Source: an uncultured cyanobacterium | Lineage (GTDB): Bacteria; Cyanobacteriota; Cyanobacteriia; Phormidesmidales; Phormidesmidaceae | Reading direction: 5' to 3' | DNA: 64,000 bases | Assembly: GCA_963793265.1 (NCBI GenBank) | Contig: CAWBZI010000001.1 | Coordinates: 1,088,001 to 1,152,000, forward strand | Shown: positions 37,939-45,003 of the stretch, in pieces | How the letters are laid out: each line of letters begins with the position of its first letter | Position numbering within the stretch: the first letter of the stretch is position 1 | Program-made: the position numbers and the translations under genes | The notes under the pieces: generated by a model | The model's database searches: none | The model's input: the letters and a program-made list of their open reading frames with translations, nothing else | What the model was told of the DNA's origin: nothing

Positions 37939-38462
37939 CCCAAAAAGCCCATGGCCTCTTCGCACCAGGCCACCCAGGCAAGCTGCTGACGAATGCCCGC
38001 TCGCAGCGCTAGATACTGAAACTGATTTTCGCGCGTGAGTTCAGGCATTTGCGCGTACTGCTTCGAGATCGCCTGATAGCTTTTGAGCTTTTCTTTGTGC
38101 TGCTCGTGATAGGCCTGTAGGGTTTGCAGCAGCGGCTCGGTCGGGACGGTGTGACCGACGGATAGCTTGATGAGCAGATCGGACTTTAGAGGGGCGATCG
38201 CGTCCACTTCTGCAATCCACTGCTGCAAATGCTGCCTGCCGCTATCGGTTACCGTATACAGCTTCTTATTAGGCCGGTTTTCCTGCTCAATCTTCTCAGA
38301 CGACAAATACTCGCTCTCTTCTAGCTGAGCGAGCGCCTTATAAATTTGCTGGTGGCTAGCGCTCCAAAAGCACTCCACCGACTTATTAAAGCGTTTTACC
38401 AGGTCGTAACCGCTACAGGAACGATTGGTCAGTGCCGCCAAAATTGCATAGGAAAGAGCCAT
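37899..38462 (-). CDS. PadR family transcriptional regulator
   Basis: SGYDLVKRF..FWSASHQQIY..RPNKKLYTVTDSG. Confidence 0.92.
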   Translation of the reverse strand: MALSYAILAALTNRSCSGYDLVKRFNKSVECFWSASHQQIYKALAQLEESEYLSSEKIEQENRPNKKLYTVTDSGRQHLQQWIAEVDAIAPLKSDLLIKLSVGHTVPTEPLLQTLQAYHEQHKEKLKSYQAISKQYAQMPELTRENQFQYLALRAGIRQQLAWVAWCEEAMGFLGQPVAVRESSSVS

Positions 38463-38652
38463 ACTCTAAACCAAGAATATTCACCTATATGCATATTAAA
38501 CTAAGAAGCTTTAAGAATAGAGCCTACTATTATAGACTTGGTTGCAAAAATCCCATCGAACTATCTTTAAAGTTACTCATGAGCCAGGCTGTAGTCTGTC
38601 TTCGGCCATTGAAAATGCTCTAAAATACGAACAAAAGCTGGAGCATTTGCTT

Positions 38653-39630
38653 ATGAGCCCGCAAAAGCAGTCATATGACGTATTTTTGTCTCACAATACC
38701 AAAGACAAAGATCAGGTTTTGATAGTTGCCAGCTATCTGGAATCGCAGGGGTTGAGTCTTTGGATAGATAGAAATAATCTTCGCGGAGGAAACTGCCTTC
38801 CAAAGGAGATTACGACTGCAATCTATAACTCCAGAGTTGCCGCTGTTTTTATCGGGAAGCATGGCTTAGGAACATGGCAGCAAGACGAGCTAGGAACCAT
38901 TGAAACGAGAAGGACAAAGGGGCATCTAGATCTCATCCCGATCCTGCTACCAGATGTCTACGAGCTACCAGACGAACCGGACTACTATTCTCTTGAGAAA
39001 TTACTATATATCTCTTTCTCTTCTGATGACTTTTCTTCTAGCGATGATCAGGCTCAGCTAACTAAGCTAGCCGAAGGCATTGCGCGATACGCAAATGACT
39101 GGACAATTAAAAAGCTGAGAAGTCTTATTAGAGAGAAAGAAGACGCCGTACAAAAACTACAGGAGATTTCTCAAGAAATTGAAAGAATAGAAGCCCAGTT
39201 GAAAACCACACTGGGCAAAGAAAGACAGAGAGGGGTCGAATGGATTGAGTCAAGAAGAGCCGAAATAGTCATGAACAGATACGCAATACGAGCGTTGAGA
39301 GATTTTCCTACACTAGGGAAAGTTCTCAGACAAAGAGGGGATGGAATTCAGCAATTTCGTTTGGACATAGATACTTTCTTAAAATTCACTGCTCTTGCCT
39401 TTCAAACTGAGCAAGTTTCATTGATAGAAGAGATGGAGATAGATCTCTTCTTTGCAGAACCAGAGTTTGAGAAGCCTGAGTTCTATGCAGACAAACTCAC
39501 GACCAAAGTATATAAAGAGGTTCTTAGCCTCATAGAGGCTGATCTTCCCGAAGATTTAGACAAAACCATCACAAAAGAGCTAGAGCAGTGCTTCATTCAC
39601 ATGAGAAATCGAATAACAGCTCTCATTTGA
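38653..39630 (+). CDS. TIR-domain protein with central coiled coil and unknown C-terminal domain
   Basis: YDVFLSHNTKDK, LWIDR, AVFIG..GTWQQDEL (putative catalytic Glu), LIPILLP; ATG 38653 with upstream GGAG preferred over TTG 38542. Confidence 0.88.
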   Translation: MSPQKQSYDVFLSHNTKDKDQVLIVASYLESQGLSLWIDRNNLRGGNCLPKEITTAIYNSRVAAVFIGKHGLGTWQQDELGTIETRRTKGHLDLIPILLPDVYELPDEPDYYSLEKLLYISFSSDDFSSSDDQAQLTKLAEGIARYANDWTIKKLRSLIREKEDAVQKLQEISQEIERIEAQLKTTLGKERQRGVEWIESRRAEIVMNRYAIRALRDFPTLGKVLRQRGDGIQQFRLDIDTFLKFTALAFQTEQVSLIEEMEIDLFFAEPEFEKPEFYADKLTTKVYKEVLSLIEADLPEDLDKTITKELEQCFIHMRNRITALI

Positions 39631-39710
39631 TCAAGAGCTATCACGCTCATATACATTTTATTTTTTGTCTTCGGATCGCTTCTGAATGGTCTGCTTTTAA
39701 CCCATCTGCA

Positions 39711-39854
39711 TCATCTACCTTTCAGTCTTCTAATTTGTTCTTCTATGTTGGAAAGGTTATTAAGTAGCTTTTCCATCCTTCTTTTATCAGAAGTCAATCG
39801 GAGAATTTCCTTTCTAATAGCATGTTGTTGGTTGTAGAGATTTGCAAGGCTCAT
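39711..39854 (-). CDS. Small coiled-coil protein, 47 aa (not in ORF track)
   Basis: Manual translation MSLANLYNQQHAIRKEILRLTSDKRRMEKLLNNLSNIEEQIRRLKGR*; heptad pattern; no clear SD. Confidence 0.55.
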   Translation of the reverse strand: MSLANLYNQQHAIRKEILRLTSDKRRMEKLLNNLSNIEEQIRRLKGR

Positions 39855-39987
39855 GTTAGGTCTTTACTTCAGCTAGGTTTTATGATTCCTTTTGCTGAAC
39901 TAACTAACGTCAAGCCGGAGTTTGTGGCAATCCTTAATCAAAAAAGTCGGTAGATGTCCTTTATGTGAAGTTGAGCGAGGCTTCTGA

Positions 39988-40122
39988 TTACATAGATCTT
40001 CTCTCCTTCTTCAGTTCTTTAATCTGATCGTCTAATTCTGTTATACGTTTCTTCGTTTGCTGCTCTTCTATTATTAGCTTTTTAAGTTTTTCGTAGTCCT
40101 TGTCTTTGGGCTTAGCTCTCAT
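39988..40122 (-). CDS. Small coiled-coil protein, 44 aa (not in ORF track)
   Basis: Manual translation MRAKPKDKDYEKLKKLIIEEQQTKKRITELDDQIKELKKERRSM*; heptad pattern; inverted repeat just upstream. Confidence 0.6.
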   Translation of the reverse strand: MRAKPKDKDYEKLKKLIIEEQQTKKRITELDDQIKELKKERRSM

Positions 40123-40134
40123 CTATTCATACAC

Positions 40135-40187
40135 GCTTTATAGTACATCTATACCATATCATAATTAATTCAAATGTACTATAAAGC
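40135..40187. promoter_or_regulatory. Perfect 14-bp inverted repeat with 25-bp AT-rich spacer (candidate operator)
   Basis: GCTTTATAGTACAT (40135-40148) / ATGTACTATAAAGC (40174-40187). Confidence 0.6.
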
Positions 40188-40250
40188 ATACCGCTATCAG
40201 ACAGTACGACTGCTCAGTTCCCATAAGCCATAGCGTTTATAGACAATTGC

Positions 40251-41114
40251 TCACGAATAGCGAATCTGTAGCAAGAGTCGTTTTGATTTAATGGGAGGCA
40301 AAAGCTTATGAAAGCAGGAAGGGTCTTGCATAAAGCCGAAGCCTGCTTTGCCTTCGATGACAATTTCACTTTCTTTGCCATAGTGGGCGATCGCCTGCTG
40401 TGCAATTTGAGGGGCCATGCCAGGAACAAATAACGTACTAGGTGGCTTTCGGTTGTGTGATTTTGCAATCATCACATGCGCCCCTGTCGTCGCATCTATA
40501 TCGGTAATATAGAAATACGTTGTCATAAAGTTATAGCCCGCAACATCGTAGTGATAGTTTAGCGGCGGATAAATCTGTTGTTGTTCAGCGAGCGGAAGAT
40601 CTACGGGAAAGCTCCATGTGAGATGGTAGGTGAGCTTAGAAGGCCAGTATCTTAAATAGCTACGAACAATCTTCAACAGATTAGGATCCTGGGCTAGCTC
40701 AATCATCACAGGACAGTTCTGCGGATTTTTCACGAGCCCTCTAAATACAGGTCTTTCACCGCTTGAGACGTCTGATCGAACGTCATGTGCGTAGAACTCA
40801 TCTGAAGATCCAGGCTCATAGCAAGGCGTTTCACTTGCAAACTTATAAACACTCTCTATCTTTTCAGCAGGCAGACGCAGGCCAAAACTCACGCCGTCTT
40901 CACGTAGACTTTTCAAACAAACTTCTGACGAAATATCAGGAAACAAAGAGAATTCTCTGGGATTAAGCCGACGTTCGTAATAGTCAGCACGAAGCTGCTG
41001 ACAGCTATTTTGGTAGGTACTGTAGGCACTACGAACTGATTTAAACCGGCCTAGCGTACGGTGGAAATCTCCTTTCAATAGGCGATCGCTAAGGCGCTGG
41101 ATATTAGTATTCAT
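40251..41114 (-). CDS. PhyH-like 2-oxoglutarate/Fe(II) dioxygenase
   Basis: YHYD (HxD), FYITDID..GAHVMIAKSH, GKAGFGFMQDP..FHK, RLLLQ. Confidence 0.7.
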   Translation of the reverse strand: MNTNIQRLSDRLLKGDFHRTLGRFKSVRSAYSTYQNSCQQLRADYYERRLNPREFSLFPDISSEVCLKSLREDGVSFGLRLPAEKIESVYKFASETPCYEPGSSDEFYAHDVRSDVSSGERPVFRGLVKNPQNCPVMIELAQDPNLLKIVRSYLRYWPSKLTYHLTWSFPVDLPLAEQQQIYPPLNYHYDVAGYNFMTTYFYITDIDATTGAHVMIAKSHNRKPPSTLFVPGMAPQIAQQAIAHYGKESEIVIEGKAGFGFMQDPSCFHKLLPPIKSKRLLLQIRYS

Positions 41115-41491
41115 AGCTGTGGGAAAGAGATAGAACGATCTGCTCTTACTTGCGGTACACCGAAGTTTTTGATGCTCTAAAGCCCTGACTGTATGAATAC
41201 AACAGCAGCGACTCGCTTTACAGACGCTTTTTTACAAAACAAATGACACACAAAAGCGTACGTATTTATACTTATTTAGCTTACCCTAACTGTATTATTT
41301 CAGACTTTTCGTCGTACGAATCACTCGCTCTTTGAAGATGTCGCGAAGATGTTGACGAATTTTGAAGCGTAGGCCAAAGCGCGTTCGGTAATATTAAGGA
41401 ACGCGGCTTATGGTGCATAAGCCGTGAGCATTCGCAGTATGGTTTTAAAAGTTTATTCGCCATATTTTCTATCGCGCATTAAGGCTTCATC

Positions 41492-43462
41492 ATGTCAGAC
41501 TCCACTATCGAATCAGTACTGCAAGAGCAGCGGGTATTTGAGCCCCCAGCCGCGTTTTCTCAAAGCGCGCGAATACCGAGTATGGCAGCTTACCAAAAGC
41601 TATACGACGAAGCGGCGGCTGACCCGGCTGCGTTTTGGGCGCGGCTGGCTGAAGAAGAGCTGGACTGGTTTGAAAAGTGGGACACCACCCTCGACTGGCA
41701 GCCGCCCGTTGCCAAGTGGTTCACGGGCGGCAAAATCAATATTTCGTACAACTGCCTAGATCGGCACTTAACCACCGAACGGCGCAATAAGGCCGCTCTG
41801 ATCTGGGAGGGCGAACCCGGTGACTCGCGTACGCTCACCTACGCCCAGCTTCATCGCGAAGTGTGTCAGATGGCAAACGTGCTCAAAGGCATGGGCGTGG
41901 TGAAAGGCGATCGCGTTGGCCTTTATATGCCCATGATTCCTGAAGCCGCTGTGGCTATGCTTGCCTGTGCCCGCATTGGCGCAGCGCATACGGTGGTCTT
42001 TGGCGGCTTTAGCGCAGAGGCTTTGCGCGATCGCCTCAACGACGCCGAAGCCAAAGTCGTAATCACCGCAGATGGCGGCTTCCGCAAAGATAAACCCATG
42101 GGCCTAAAGTCCGCCGTAGACGCAGCCCTTGCCGATAGCGCCGTCCCCTCAGTCACCAACGTCCTTGTCGTACAGCGCACCAAGCAAGACGTGGAATGGA
42201 CAGAGGGCCGCGACGTATGGTGGCACGACGCTCAGCCCACCGCCTCCGCCGACTGCCCTGCTGAACCGATGGACTCTGAAGACCTCCTATTCATCCTCTA
42301 CACCAGCGGAACCACCGGCAAACCCAAAGGCGTCGTCCACACCACCGCCGGATACAACCTCTACACCCACATGACCTTCAAGTGGACATTCGACATCAAA
42401 GAAACCGACGTGTACTGGTGCACCGCTGATGTCGGTTGGATTACTGGCCACAGCTATATCGTGTACGGCCCGCTTTCCAACGGTGCGACTAGCCTCATGT
42501 ACGAAGGCGCACCCAGAGCCTCTAATCCCGGCTGCTTCTGGGATGTGGTCGAAAAATACGGCGTCAATATCTTTTACACCGCCCCCACCGCCATTCGCGC
42601 CTTCATGAAAATGGGCGATGAGCTGCCAAAAGCTCGCGACCTGTCATCCCTGCGCATTTTAGGCACCGTAGGCGAACCTATTAACCCCGAAGCCTGGATG
42701 TGGTACCGCGAAGTCATTGGCGGCAACAACTGCCCCATCGTCGATACGTGGTGGCAAACCGAAACCGGCGGCTTCATGCTCACGCCTTTACCTGGGGCCA
42801 CCCCCACCAAGCCCGGCTCAGCCACCAAGCCATTTCCCGGCATTCTGGCAGATGTTGTCGATGCCGAAGGCAATCCTGTGGGGGCTAACGAAGGCGGCTA
42901 TTTGGTCGTAAAGCATCCCTGGCCTAGCATGATGCGTACCGTATACGGCGACGATGCCCGGTTCCGCCGCACCTATTGGGAGCACATTCCGCCTAAAGAC
43001 GGTCAGCACTTCTATTTTGCAGGCGATGGTGCGCGGCAGGATGAAGACGGCTATTTTTGGGTGATGGGTCGAACCGATGACGTGCTTAATGTGTCAGGGC
43101 ATCGGCTTGGCACGATGGAGATTGAGTCGGCTTTGGTGTCGCATCCTTCGGTGGCCGAGGCGGCTGTGGTAGGGCGCAAAGACGATCTTAAAGGTGAGGA
43201 TGTGTATGCGTTTGTGACGTTGGAAGGAACATATAGTGCCAGTGATGAGCTAAAAGCTGAGCTGAAGCAGCATGTGGTGAAAGAGATTGGTGCGATCGCC
43301 CGTCCTGGCGAAATCCAATTCACCGACGCCCTCCCTAAAACCCGCTCCGGCAAAATCATCCGCCGCTTTCTACGCAACTTAGCCAGCGGTGAAGAAGTCG
43401 TAGGTGATGCGACAACAATGGAGGATCAAAGCGTACTAGAGAAGCTGCGACAGGGCTCATAG
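41492..43462 (+). CDS. acs: Acetyl-CoA synthetase
   Basis: [33 protein letters not shown]. Confidence 0.97.
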
Positions 43463-43477
43463 CAGCATGTACCAGCT

Positions 43478-43744
43478 ATGGCTTTTCAGTATGATCAAAA
43501 TAAAGCGGCAGGTAACCTACAAAAACATGGCGTTTCTTTCTCTGAGGCCGAGGGCGTATTTAGCGATCCGCTAGCAATACACTTTGAAGATGTCTCAGCA
43601 TCAGGTGAAGCTCGTTTCGTTACAATCGGAATGAGTTTCGCTTTCGCCATTCTAGTTGTCGTCTACACTTTTCGTGATGATGATATTCGCTTAATTTCAG
43701 CTCGTCGAGCTAGTAAATCCGAAGGAAAAGCTTATGAAGGATGA
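43478..43744 (+). CDS. brnT: BrnT family toxin
   Basis: FQYDQNKAAGNLQKHGVSF..F.DP..IRLISARRA. Confidence 0.9.
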   Translation: MAFQYDQNKAAGNLQKHGVSFSEAEGVFSDPLAIHFEDVSASGEARFVTIGMSFAFAILVVVYTFRDDDIRLISARRASKSEGKAYEG

Positions 43745-44033
43745 ATACGACTTTTCAAAGGGAAAGAGAGGCGCAGTTCTCTCAACAGAAGGCATGACTC
43801 ACATTCACTTTTATATCAAAGATGAAATATTAGAAGAACTACGAAGGCAATCTGAGCAGCTAGAAACGGGTTATCAAACACTTATTAATAGCATTCTGAG
43901 AAAGCATATTGAAAGTTCAGAAGATTTTCTTGATCTACCACTAGAGTCACAGCCTTTGAACAAAGCACTTCCTGTAAGTAGTGAGGGTCACCGTAACAGC
44001 AGGGTTTTAGCAGATGACATCCACCGTTCCTAG
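43734..44033 (+). CDS. brnA: BrnA family antitoxin
   Basis: MKDEYDFSKGKRG..GYQTLINSILR; overlaps brnT stop. Confidence 0.85.
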   Translation: MKDEYDFSKGKRGAVLSTEGMTHIHFYIKDEILEELRRQSEQLETGYQTLINSILRKHIESSEDFLDLPLESQPLNKALPVSSEGHRNSRVLADDIHRS

Positions 44034-44523
44034 CACTTTAAATAGCACTGAGGGTCTTTACGAGGCTGACTTCTACGCTTGGACGCAGCAGCAGGCTTTG
44101 CTGCTACGCAATCGGCAGTGGCAAGAAGTAGATTTAGACAATGTGATTGAGGAGATTGAGTCTTTGGGTAGGCAGCAAAGACAAGAGCTTCGCAATCGCT
44201 TAGCAGTGCTTATCGGACATTTACTGAAGTGGGAGTATCAAAGTGAAAAGCGCAGCCGCAGTTGGCTAGCCACTATCAACATTCAAAGACTCGATATTGA
44301 AGCGCTGATAGCAGACAATCCAAGCCTGCAACCCTACCTTGATGAAGCAATGGAGGTTGCCTATCGCAAGGGCCGAATGCTAGCGGTTAAAGAGACTGAA
44401 CTACCTCAAAGTATCTTTCCTTCAGAAGCGGCTTACTCGCTAGCAAATATTCTAAAAGAAGGTTTTTATCCAGGAGGGGATAGCGACTTGACCGAGCCTA
44501 TATTTCGTAAAGGATGTGAATGA
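44014..44523 (+). CDS. DUF29 family protein
   Basis: LYEADFYAWTQQQA..IEEIESLGR..LIGHLLKWEYQ..SRSW. Confidence 0.92.
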   Translation: MTSTVPSTLNSTEGLYEADFYAWTQQQALLLRNRQWQEVDLDNVIEEIESLGRQQRQELRNRLAVLIGHLLKWEYQSEKRSRSWLATINIQRLDIEALIADNPSLQPYLDEAMEVAYRKGRMLAVKETELPQSIFPSEAAYSLANILKEGFYPGGDSDLTEPIFRKGCE

Positions 44524-44753
44524 ACTTTGAAACCGTGGGTAAGATTTCAGATATTGAAATCATTGCCGTCAATTTATCAATTAGAGAGTTAGATTCTCTA
44601 AAAGAAAAGCATGGTGGGCGTAGATGGCGAAAGCTAAAAGGTATAGGTCTTGTAAGCCTTCAGAGCGGCAGTATACGCAAAGCAGAACTGCATTGGTATG
44701 AGGCGCACGGAATTGGTAAACGTAAAATGAAGATTAAAAGGTTCTTGGATTAG
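44520..44753 (+). CDS. Hypothetical basic protein (77 aa)
   Basis: GRRWRKLKG..AELHWYEAHGIGK; translationally coupled to DUF29 gene. Confidence 0.8.
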   Translation: MNFETVGKISDIEIIAVNLSIRELDSLKEKHGGRRWRKLKGIGLVSLQSGSIRKAELHWYEAHGIGKRKMKIKRFLD

Positions 44754-44760
44754 TGCTGCG

Positions 44761-45003
44761 ATGAACAAGCTATTAGAACAACGACAGTTTGCGATCTGCA
44801 TCGCAAATGACAACTGCGATGACCTTCAGATTCTTAAAATCTATCAGCTTTTGCCCGACCAGAAAGCAGCCGAAGAAAATTACGTTCGCATTATTGACGA
44901 TTCTGGAGAGGACTATCTGTATCCAGCAAGCTGCTTTGTCACAACTGAGTTTTCTACAGCCGTCACGCAGCAGCTTATCGCTGCCATTCCCTCTGTCGCT
45001 TAA
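44761..45003 (+). CDS. Hypothetical acidic protein (80 aa)
   Basis: [28 protein letters not shown]; 7 bp after previous gene. Confidence 0.8.

Follow-up and report, generated by a model that had tools for sequence, protein, structure and literature searches.

A TIR protein with a coiled coil and an antenna-derived globin domain, and two convergent microprotein genes, in a cyanobacterial genome

In a 64,000-nucleotide (nt) stretch of the genome of an uncultured cyanobacterium of the Phormidesmidaceae (the window, which always means this whole stretch), a gene for a protein with a TIR domain is followed on the opposite strand by two small open reading frames (ORFs), ORF A and ORF B. The positions, strands and sizes of the TIR gene and of the two convergent small ORFs agree with those in a preliminary description of this DNA. 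We find that ORF A and ORF B are real genes and that they almost certainly form a real linked unit with the TIR gene. The TIR protein, a putative effector, continues beyond its coiled coil into a globin domain that its sequence identifies as derived from a phycobiliprotein alpha subunit, and this coil-globin module recurs with other N-terminal domains, again beside microproteins. Each small gene is preceded by a promoter motif of its own. Our preferred reading, to which we assign a probability of roughly 0.4, is that mimics of the coil, induced by stress or differentiation, activate the effector, with death or silencing of a single cell as the outcome. The features of the locus are as follows.

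38653..39630, plus strand: effector gene (TIR, coiled coil, phycobiliprotein-alpha-derived globin domain), 325 amino acids (aa)
38674..39090, plus strand: TIR domain, about residues 8-146 (Pfam TIR_2, E-value (E) 5e-19)
38887-38889, plus strand: putative catalytic Glu79, invariant (23/23) and aligned with the WxxxE Glu of AbTir and Cat1
39100..39213, plus strand: coiled coil, about residues 150-187, core LxxLxxEK from residue 155
39214..39627, plus strand: phycobiliprotein-alpha-derived globin domain, residues 188-325 (profile matches in the PDB and structure alignment)
39711..39854, minus strand: ORF A, helical microprotein, 47 aa (conservation; ratio of nonsynonymous to synonymous substitution rates, dN/dS, 0.15)
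39893..39919, minus strand: sigma-HetZ (DIF1)-type motif for ORF A (-35 TCCGGC, 17 nt, -10 AGCA)
39988..40122, minus strand: ORF B, 44-aa microprotein similar to the effector coil (conservation; dN/dS 0.08)
40142..40155, minus strand: LexA-box-like palindrome, 33 nt before the ATG of ORF B (1 mismatch to RGTAC-N4-GTACY)

The preliminary description took the small ORFs for genes, and both are conserved beside homologues of the effector gene and under purifying selection. Against the orthologous locus L001 (related loci carry L numbers), dN/dS is 0.15 for ORF A, 0.08 for ORF B, 0.12 for the two together and 0.16 for the effector gene, with 0.38-1.3 in the five other frames of A and B, all values coming from one pair (the window and L001) and few codons. 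Profiles of A and B, built from three sequences each, were run over every ORF of 126 loci and the window. Their matches were almost exclusively ORFs convergent to a module gene, at L010, L121, L009, L119 and L120 for A (E 3e-9 to 0.04) and at L119, L010, L121, L120 and L123 for B (E 1e-10 to 0.008); the remaining matches were L117 (0.07), L008 (0.27) and the window's own coil (0.32). Among the first 12 loci, 11 have an ORF in the A position, three of them picked by position alone, and 10 have one in the B position; the flank of L009 stops after 462 nt. At two later loci, L152 and L164, the flank is too short to judge. Wherever found, the microprotein genes run towards the module gene, the facing stop codons lying 14-188 nt apart, and they recur in many loci over several cyanobacterial families.

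The unit is patchy: a single-protein query found it in 3 of 173 genomes from the family of the host, and the module profile in 6/57 and 12/90 genomes of two other orders. In the set of 90 genomes, the ORF B profile gave nine matches in seven genomes. Seven of the nine adjoin a known module gene (three of these seven are in the profile), and the other two lie at contig ends, on the module side, leaving no clear orphan ORF B among the 90 genomes. The ORF A profile, run over 173 genomes, matched three module-bearing genomes and gave one weak match within a 924-aa frame. The module was seen in cyanobacterial genomes and metagenome records only. A first metagenome scan yielded 349 candidates and no confirmed member, and a second yielded two full-length members within 80 retained loci. 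Plasmids gave no matches. Among viral contigs the ORF A profile had no match, the family profile found just one 23-residue TIR fragment, and the sole ORF B match, by eye the coil of a tail-fibre chaperone, was discarded. Neither microprotein matches a Pfam, NCBIfam or PADLOC family above cut-off; a likeness to NblA and L29 seen by eye was dropped, there being no Pfam match at E 0.01. Two variant loci were observed: downstream of position 2013 in L154 there are three microproteins, ORF A apparently having been duplicated along with its TCCGGA promoter, and in L126:829-2145 the module gene is split, its globin end in a frame of its own, with both microproteins and motifs kept.

The effector is a TIR protein by both sequence and predicted structure. 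Pfam TIR_2 spans residues 10-135, and when 1.84 billion representatives were searched with a profile, 19 of the 150 best matches were judged full-length or nearly so. A model built from 21 sequences (predicted local distance difference test 90.6) consists of the TIR domain, a single long helix (residues 130-186) and a helical C-terminal domain. Structure alignment confirms the TIR fold (VIA Z 16.9, root-mean-square deviation (rmsd) 2.3, 137 aligned), and TIRs alone were among the Foldseek matches of the first effector model. The putative catalytic Glu pointed out in the preliminary description is retained as Glu79, invariant in a 23-sequence alignment and matching the WxxxE Glu of AbTir and Cat1, which is catalytic in those proteins. 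The window TIR is probably an NAD+-cleaving enzyme.

What the preliminary description overlooked, having recognised the TIR domain and the coil, is the C-terminal domain. An 11-sequence profile of this domain searched against the PDB is headed by alpha chains, with phycoerythrin alpha at E 6.2e-7 and phycocyanin alpha at E 1.6e-5. Model residues 188-322 superpose on residues 34-164 of 1b8d_A (VIA Z 13.4, rmsd 2.7, 124 aligned); helical domains with a VIA Z of about 13 are borderline cases, and it is the sequence match that bears the alpha-subunit claim. On that footing the domain is a derivative of a phycobiliprotein alpha subunit. Nothing in the domain corresponds to the first 33-36 alpha-subunit residues (matches start at alpha residue 34-37), nor to the N-terminal X/Y helices, whose place is occupied by the effector coil. 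In phycobiliproteins the X/Y helices serve alpha-beta pairing. The position of the chromophore Cys is Phe235 in the window protein and holds no Cys in 21/21 sequences; 11 of the 21, the window protein not among them, have a Cys one residue further on, and the acidic residue at +3 from the chromophore position is retained. Two relatives reach the cut-off of PF00502, which the window protein does not match. A 3-sequence profile of the domain matched only the host among 401 genomes and had no significant Pfam or PDB match. A 10-sequence profile run over 401 phylum-wide genomes found one module-bearing genome and three stand-alone phycobiliprotein-type genes; four SepJ-like coil matches were discarded by eye. 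Stand-alone phycocyanin-alpha-like genes with, by eye, no Cys whatever were observed at L134:1489-2564 and L135:562-2001, each divergent from a gene for a SLATT-like membrane effector. In these genes the antenna fold may have entered conflict systems a second time.

The system is not specific to TIR, as had been supposed: the microproteins track the coil-globin module. The module is fused to trypsin downstream of a Trypco1 gene (L123), to patatin beside a weakly SLATT-like gene (L148), to DUF4062 (L151), to EAD10 (L152, L158, L159, L162, L165) and to HTH (L163). The trypsin and patatin fusions match their own enzyme families well and their loci retain A- and B-like ORFs; the DUF4062 and EAD10 fusions likewise carry convergent microproteins. 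At L167, an operon runs caspase, unnamed gene, MoxR-like AAA, vWA; the gene that follows vWA contains a module copy flanked by FHA and TIR-EAD9, and an EAD10 copy comes next. The trypsin, patatin and EAD10 fusions and this operon uphold the defence or conflict setting originally proposed. Within the module family, a long-coil subfamily (L149, L151, L153, L158-L162, L165) has convergent microproteins of 55-88 aa, mostly behind TCCTGA-type promoters.

Two promoter motifs, missed in the preliminary account of the locus, precede the small genes. We searched for LexA boxes with the symmetric pattern RGTAC-N4-GTACY, based on the cyanobacterial consensus in PMC3091678. A box with 1-2 mismatches starts 27-36 nt upstream of the ORF B ATG in 10/10 loci. 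The mismatch sum over these loci is 15, vs a mean of 37 and a minimum of 29 in dinucleotide shuffles (n = 2000), and 82 of 3987 host upstream windows reach such a mismatch level. The patatin locus has a perfect box. The host lexA and both recA genes have boxes with one mismatch, and the cleavage-site and catalytic residues of host LexA were recognised by eye. By eye, a further LexA half-site is seen at 40175-40180, and window positions 40135-40187 form a perfect 14-base-pair inverted repeat whose arms enclose LexA half-sites. A LexA-box-like site accompanies each of the two full recA genes of the host (host genome G000, C4:536805-537587 and C6:978741-979520), an observation in its own right.

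For ORF A, exact TCCGGA occurs 55-65 nt upstream in 6/11 loci (shuffle maximum 2; background 4/3987), and the full motif in 10/11 loci (a -35 carrying no more than 2 mismatches, then nGnA at a distance of 16-17 nt), with a mismatch sum of 8 vs a shuffle minimum of 26 (n = 3000). The sigma-HetZ (DIF1) consensus is that of PMC13342950, whose tolerated substitutions cover the window variant. In the window the motif starts 65 nt before the ATG; it is weak alone and is inferred from its position in homologues. The host carries hetR, hetZ (above cut-off) and two further HetZ-like genes, and its 5.68-Mb genome contains TCCGGA 37 times only. Fifteen oriented TCCGGA sites with a sigma-HetZ-type -10 in G000 make up a short list of candidate HetZ regulon members.

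With rules preset, we examined 13 new loci, 12 of them with at least 500 nt of flank. A sigma-HetZ-type promoter precedes a convergent small ORF in 10 of the 12, and a LexA box is present in 5 of the 12 (one preceding a doubtful ORF) and at 4/4 ORF B homologues. Among 24 control TIR loci lacking the globin domain, 18 of which had enough flank, the rates are 1/18 for the sigma-HetZ-type motif and 0/18 for LexA. The two contig-end ORF B genes of the 90-genome scan have both motifs. From these sites we infer that ORF B is under LexA control and induced by DNA damage, and that ORF A is transcribed from a sigma-HetZ-type promoter.

The preliminary description aligned both small ORFs to a 25-residue segment of the TIR coil that begins at residue 155 (nt 39115). 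The hydrophobic and acidic positions of that three-way alignment are correct by eye, and the coil match proves specific for ORF B; that of ORF A is weak and lies in another register. Using a position-specific scoring matrix (PSSM) of seven ORF B homologues, which excluded the window, L001 and one short row, the TIR coil heads the list of 4692 long host segments with 30.4 vs 22.7 bits. Searched with the ORF B hidden Markov model (HMM), the coil is second of 78407 segments, behind ORF B itself (E 0.11, or 0.007 without composition correction), and hhalign of the ORF B family against the coil gives probability 65 and E 6e-5. The window's ORF B 25-mer ranks the TIR seventh of 4692. As judged by these scores, ORF B is similar to the coil beyond generic coiled-coil likeness.

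The register given for ORF A was dropped, its score being 16 vs 31 for the best register of the pair, and hhalign of ORF A against the coil (probability 14) uses a register unlike it. We favour an N-terminal register because two later ORF A homologues start with LxxLxxEK. In that register the ORF A family PSSM ranks the coil third of 4692. The ORF A family HMM places the coil 290th of 78407 segments, or 23rd without composition correction. To a predicted complex of the coil-globin module with both microproteins (median 0.78), we give no weight either way: replacing ORF A gave 0.85 and replacing the partner 0.00 (two controls). That the microproteins act through the effector coil is likely, and provided they do, activation is slightly favoured over inhibition.

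Our preferred reading places an exchangeable N-terminal domain under a constant control module, the coil joined to a chromophore-less phycobiliprotein-alpha domain, in a switch for inducible cell death or dormancy that would belong to the conflict repertoire of multicellular bacteria. In the resting cell the coil would keep the effector inactive. DNA damage, from phage replication or ultraviolet light, would lead to LexA cleavage and so to ORF B, and ORF A would come from its sigma-HetZ-type promoter. ORF B, probably together with ORF A, would bind the coil and displace its partner helix, and the freed TIR would assemble and drain NAD+ in that cell. Speculatively, the antenna-derived domain would most likely feed in a further signal, by sensing the state of the phycobilisome or of bilins or by serving as bait for proteins that attack alpha subunits. 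The preliminary proposal of decoy antitoxins is a poor fit to the promoters: a repressor box and an alternative-sigma promoter suggest that both genes are off in unstressed cells, which would make their products poor standing antitoxins. In AbTir the coil inhibits TIR NADase activity (10.64898/2026.10.06.757174), and this, taken with the inducible-type promoters, favours a trigger.

Several observations weigh against activation by coil mimics. The search is not reciprocal, as a coil PSSM ranks ORF B 94th and ORF A 496th of 78407, and ORF B is not nearer to the coil of its own locus (matched 29.9 vs unmatched 31.6; permutation p 0.79, nine loci). Microproteins of the long-coil subfamily are unrelated in sequence and mostly lack a LexA box. 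No convergent microprotein is found within 502 nt at L124, or, by the criteria used, at L150, L157 and L163, these three with enough flank. In several module genes the N-terminal part is not an enzyme (EAD10, HTH) or is missing altogether, and the switch model must treat their products as adaptors. Upstream of the effector gene or its upstream partner there is no LexA box (best 3-4 mismatches, 11/11), and SOS genes are not always under cyanobacterial LexA (PMC3091678). In the window the -35 reads TCCGGC, a hexamer with 2395 copies in the genome, so that the sigma-HetZ-type assignment there leans on position. Both motifs were first noticed by eye in the initial loci and then tested, and related loci and genomes are not independent samples, so the counts overstate significance.

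Of the alternatives, inducible inhibition survives best, though we consider it unlikely. In that scheme the phycobiliprotein-like domain is a sensor, for example a lure for phage proteins directed at alpha subunits, that sets off assembly through the coil, and the microproteins cap the coil while the host breaks down phycobilisomes or repairs DNA. ORF B does resemble a coil-only copy of an assembly helix, the usual dominant-negative shape, as in the CARD-only and PYD-only proteins. Alpha subunits are the nearest solved relatives of the domain. Cyanophage NblA reduces phycoerythrin and phycocyanin alpha subunits in infection (PMC12695635). Yet LexA would boost the inhibitor in DNA damage, just when defence is needed; the bait would lack the first 33-36 residues of an alpha subunit; and some module genes have no microproteins.

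In another, quite improbable alternative the output is the coil-globin module, as an alpha mimic without chromophore that poisons phycobilisome assembly or binds up bilins and shuts down light harvesting, with TIR or EAD10 as adaptors and the microproteins tuning the module. The EAD10-coil-globin proteins without an enzyme domain would fit, as would the placement of the module in the effector region of the caspase-MoxR-vWA operon, and EAD10 is counted among the effector-recruiting EADs (PMC7159879). The invariance of TIR Glu79 (23/23) and the good fit of the trypsin and patatin fusions to enzyme families argue otherwise, and the coil replaces the very helices of alpha-beta pairing.

The likeness of the A and B profiles to each other (hhalign probability 69) and the lack of locus-matched covariation with the coil would suit microproteins that form a small unit of their own, binding one another or some other target and merely travelling with the effector gene. 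We regard this as highly improbable, given the distribution described above, with no clear orphan ORF B and with ORF A matches in the module-bearing genomes plus one weak match, and the persistence of the layout through effector swaps. Least probable of all is silencing of the effector by antisense RNA or transcriptional interference from the induced small genes. The convergent layout, seen wherever the small genes were, with the stop-to-stop gaps given above, would speak for it, as would the lack of any terminator-like site on the minus strand in the interval from ORF A to the TIR gene; purifying selection on both ORFs and the coil-specific pattern of ORF B speak against it.

The window system falls outside Thoeris, AbTir-type CC-TIR proteins, type II toxin-antitoxin systems, true phycobiliproteins and photoglobin. 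No ThsA lies beside the window TIR gene as in Thoeris. In PADLOC, the TIR domain matches models of ThsB, SAVED-TIR and PDC-S66 with coverage of at most about residues 4-97; these are matches to the TIR part, and no ThsA, SAVED or Argonaute partner was seen. AbTir/TcpB-type proteins also join a TIR with the WxxxE Glu to a coil, but with the coil N-terminal, the TIR C-terminal and nothing further, whereas the order here is TIR-coil-globin and separate convergent coil-like microproteins are present. A putative toxic enzyme with small neighbouring proteins recalls type II toxin-antitoxin systems; here, however, the genes are convergent in all loci where they were seen rather than in one operon, and the small genes have inducible-type promoters. 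The globin body is homologous to phycoerythrin and phycocyanin alpha (PF00502), from which it differs in lacking the chromophore Cys and the X/Y helices. Photoglobin likewise misses two N-terminal helices (PMC8717448), but the module is fused to conflict effectors and not to B12-binding domains, none of which appeared in Pfam scans of module proteins.

The nearest likeness is to the EAD-coupled and vWA-MoxR ternary conflict systems of PMC7159879, which share TIR, trypsin with Trypco1, caspase, EAD9, EAD10 and FHA with our loci, whose layout L167 reproduces, and in which a small helical unit likewise stands in the effector and again in a neighbouring gene. Around the effector gene of the window there is no MoxR, vWA or VMAP neighbour, and what the effector shares with adjacent genes is a coil and nothing else, carried by stand-alone microproteins, each with a promoter of its own. 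EAD copies in adjacent genes are closest to each other, which ORF B and the coil are not (29.9 vs 31.6, p 0.79, nine loci). GUN4 was proposed in PMC7159879 as a tetrapyrrole sensor of ternary systems; the words 'globin' and 'phycobil' are absent from its main text and two supplements, and its alignment supplements might name the domain. In the mainly non-subscription literature we found no published description of a TIR- or other effector-coil-globin protein with microproteins.

The phycobiliprotein fold is here a recruit of conflict systems, and the microproteins are probable switches for TIR, protease and lipase effectors. Whether all of this amounts to a new programmed-death switch, with an antenna alpha subunit as control domain of swappable killers and microproteins wired to SOS and to HetR-sigma-HetZ, is a tentative and somewhat doubtful proposition. 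If true, it would give filamentous cyanobacteria without heterocysts a direct HetR/HetZ output, possibly for the execution of sacrificial cells (necridia) or for abortive infection. The role of hetR and patX in heterocyst-less species has been termed a mystery (PMC11298460), and a circuit originally for necridia formation has been conjectured (PMC7761841). A putative death effector opposite a sigma-HetZ-type promoter offers a testable handle on that question.

The neighbours of the window TIR gene are PadR, the two microproteins and a 287-aa ORF (40251-41114, minus strand) without Pfam or NCBIfam match, which by eye resembles an Fe/2-oxoglutarate dioxygenase; it is missing from the orthologous site in L001, pointing to a separate insertion. 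Five of the first 12 loci, though not the window, have a conserved 165-aa gene immediately before the TIR gene:

L010:3466-3960, L009:474-968, L120:3232-3726, L122:3263-3757 and L126:270-764: 165-aa upstream gene

It matches no Pfam, NCBIfam or PADLOC family. Look-alike clusters occur in cyanobacteria and actinomycetes, and at L121 just its final codons remain, by eye. The stretch is AT-rich, as the preliminary description noted (GC 38-43% in 38500-41500 vs about 51% for the whole genome). No HIP1 site occurs in 38194-40387, but in this HIP1-rich host (2199 sites in the 1.9-Mb contig, mean spacing about 860 base pairs) the 2.2-kb gap is only about 2.5 times the mean spacing and mildly unusual, and we abandoned it as evidence. 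A second AT-rich patch, at 43478-45003, holds small genes that by eye are BrnT/BrnA-like and DUF29-like.

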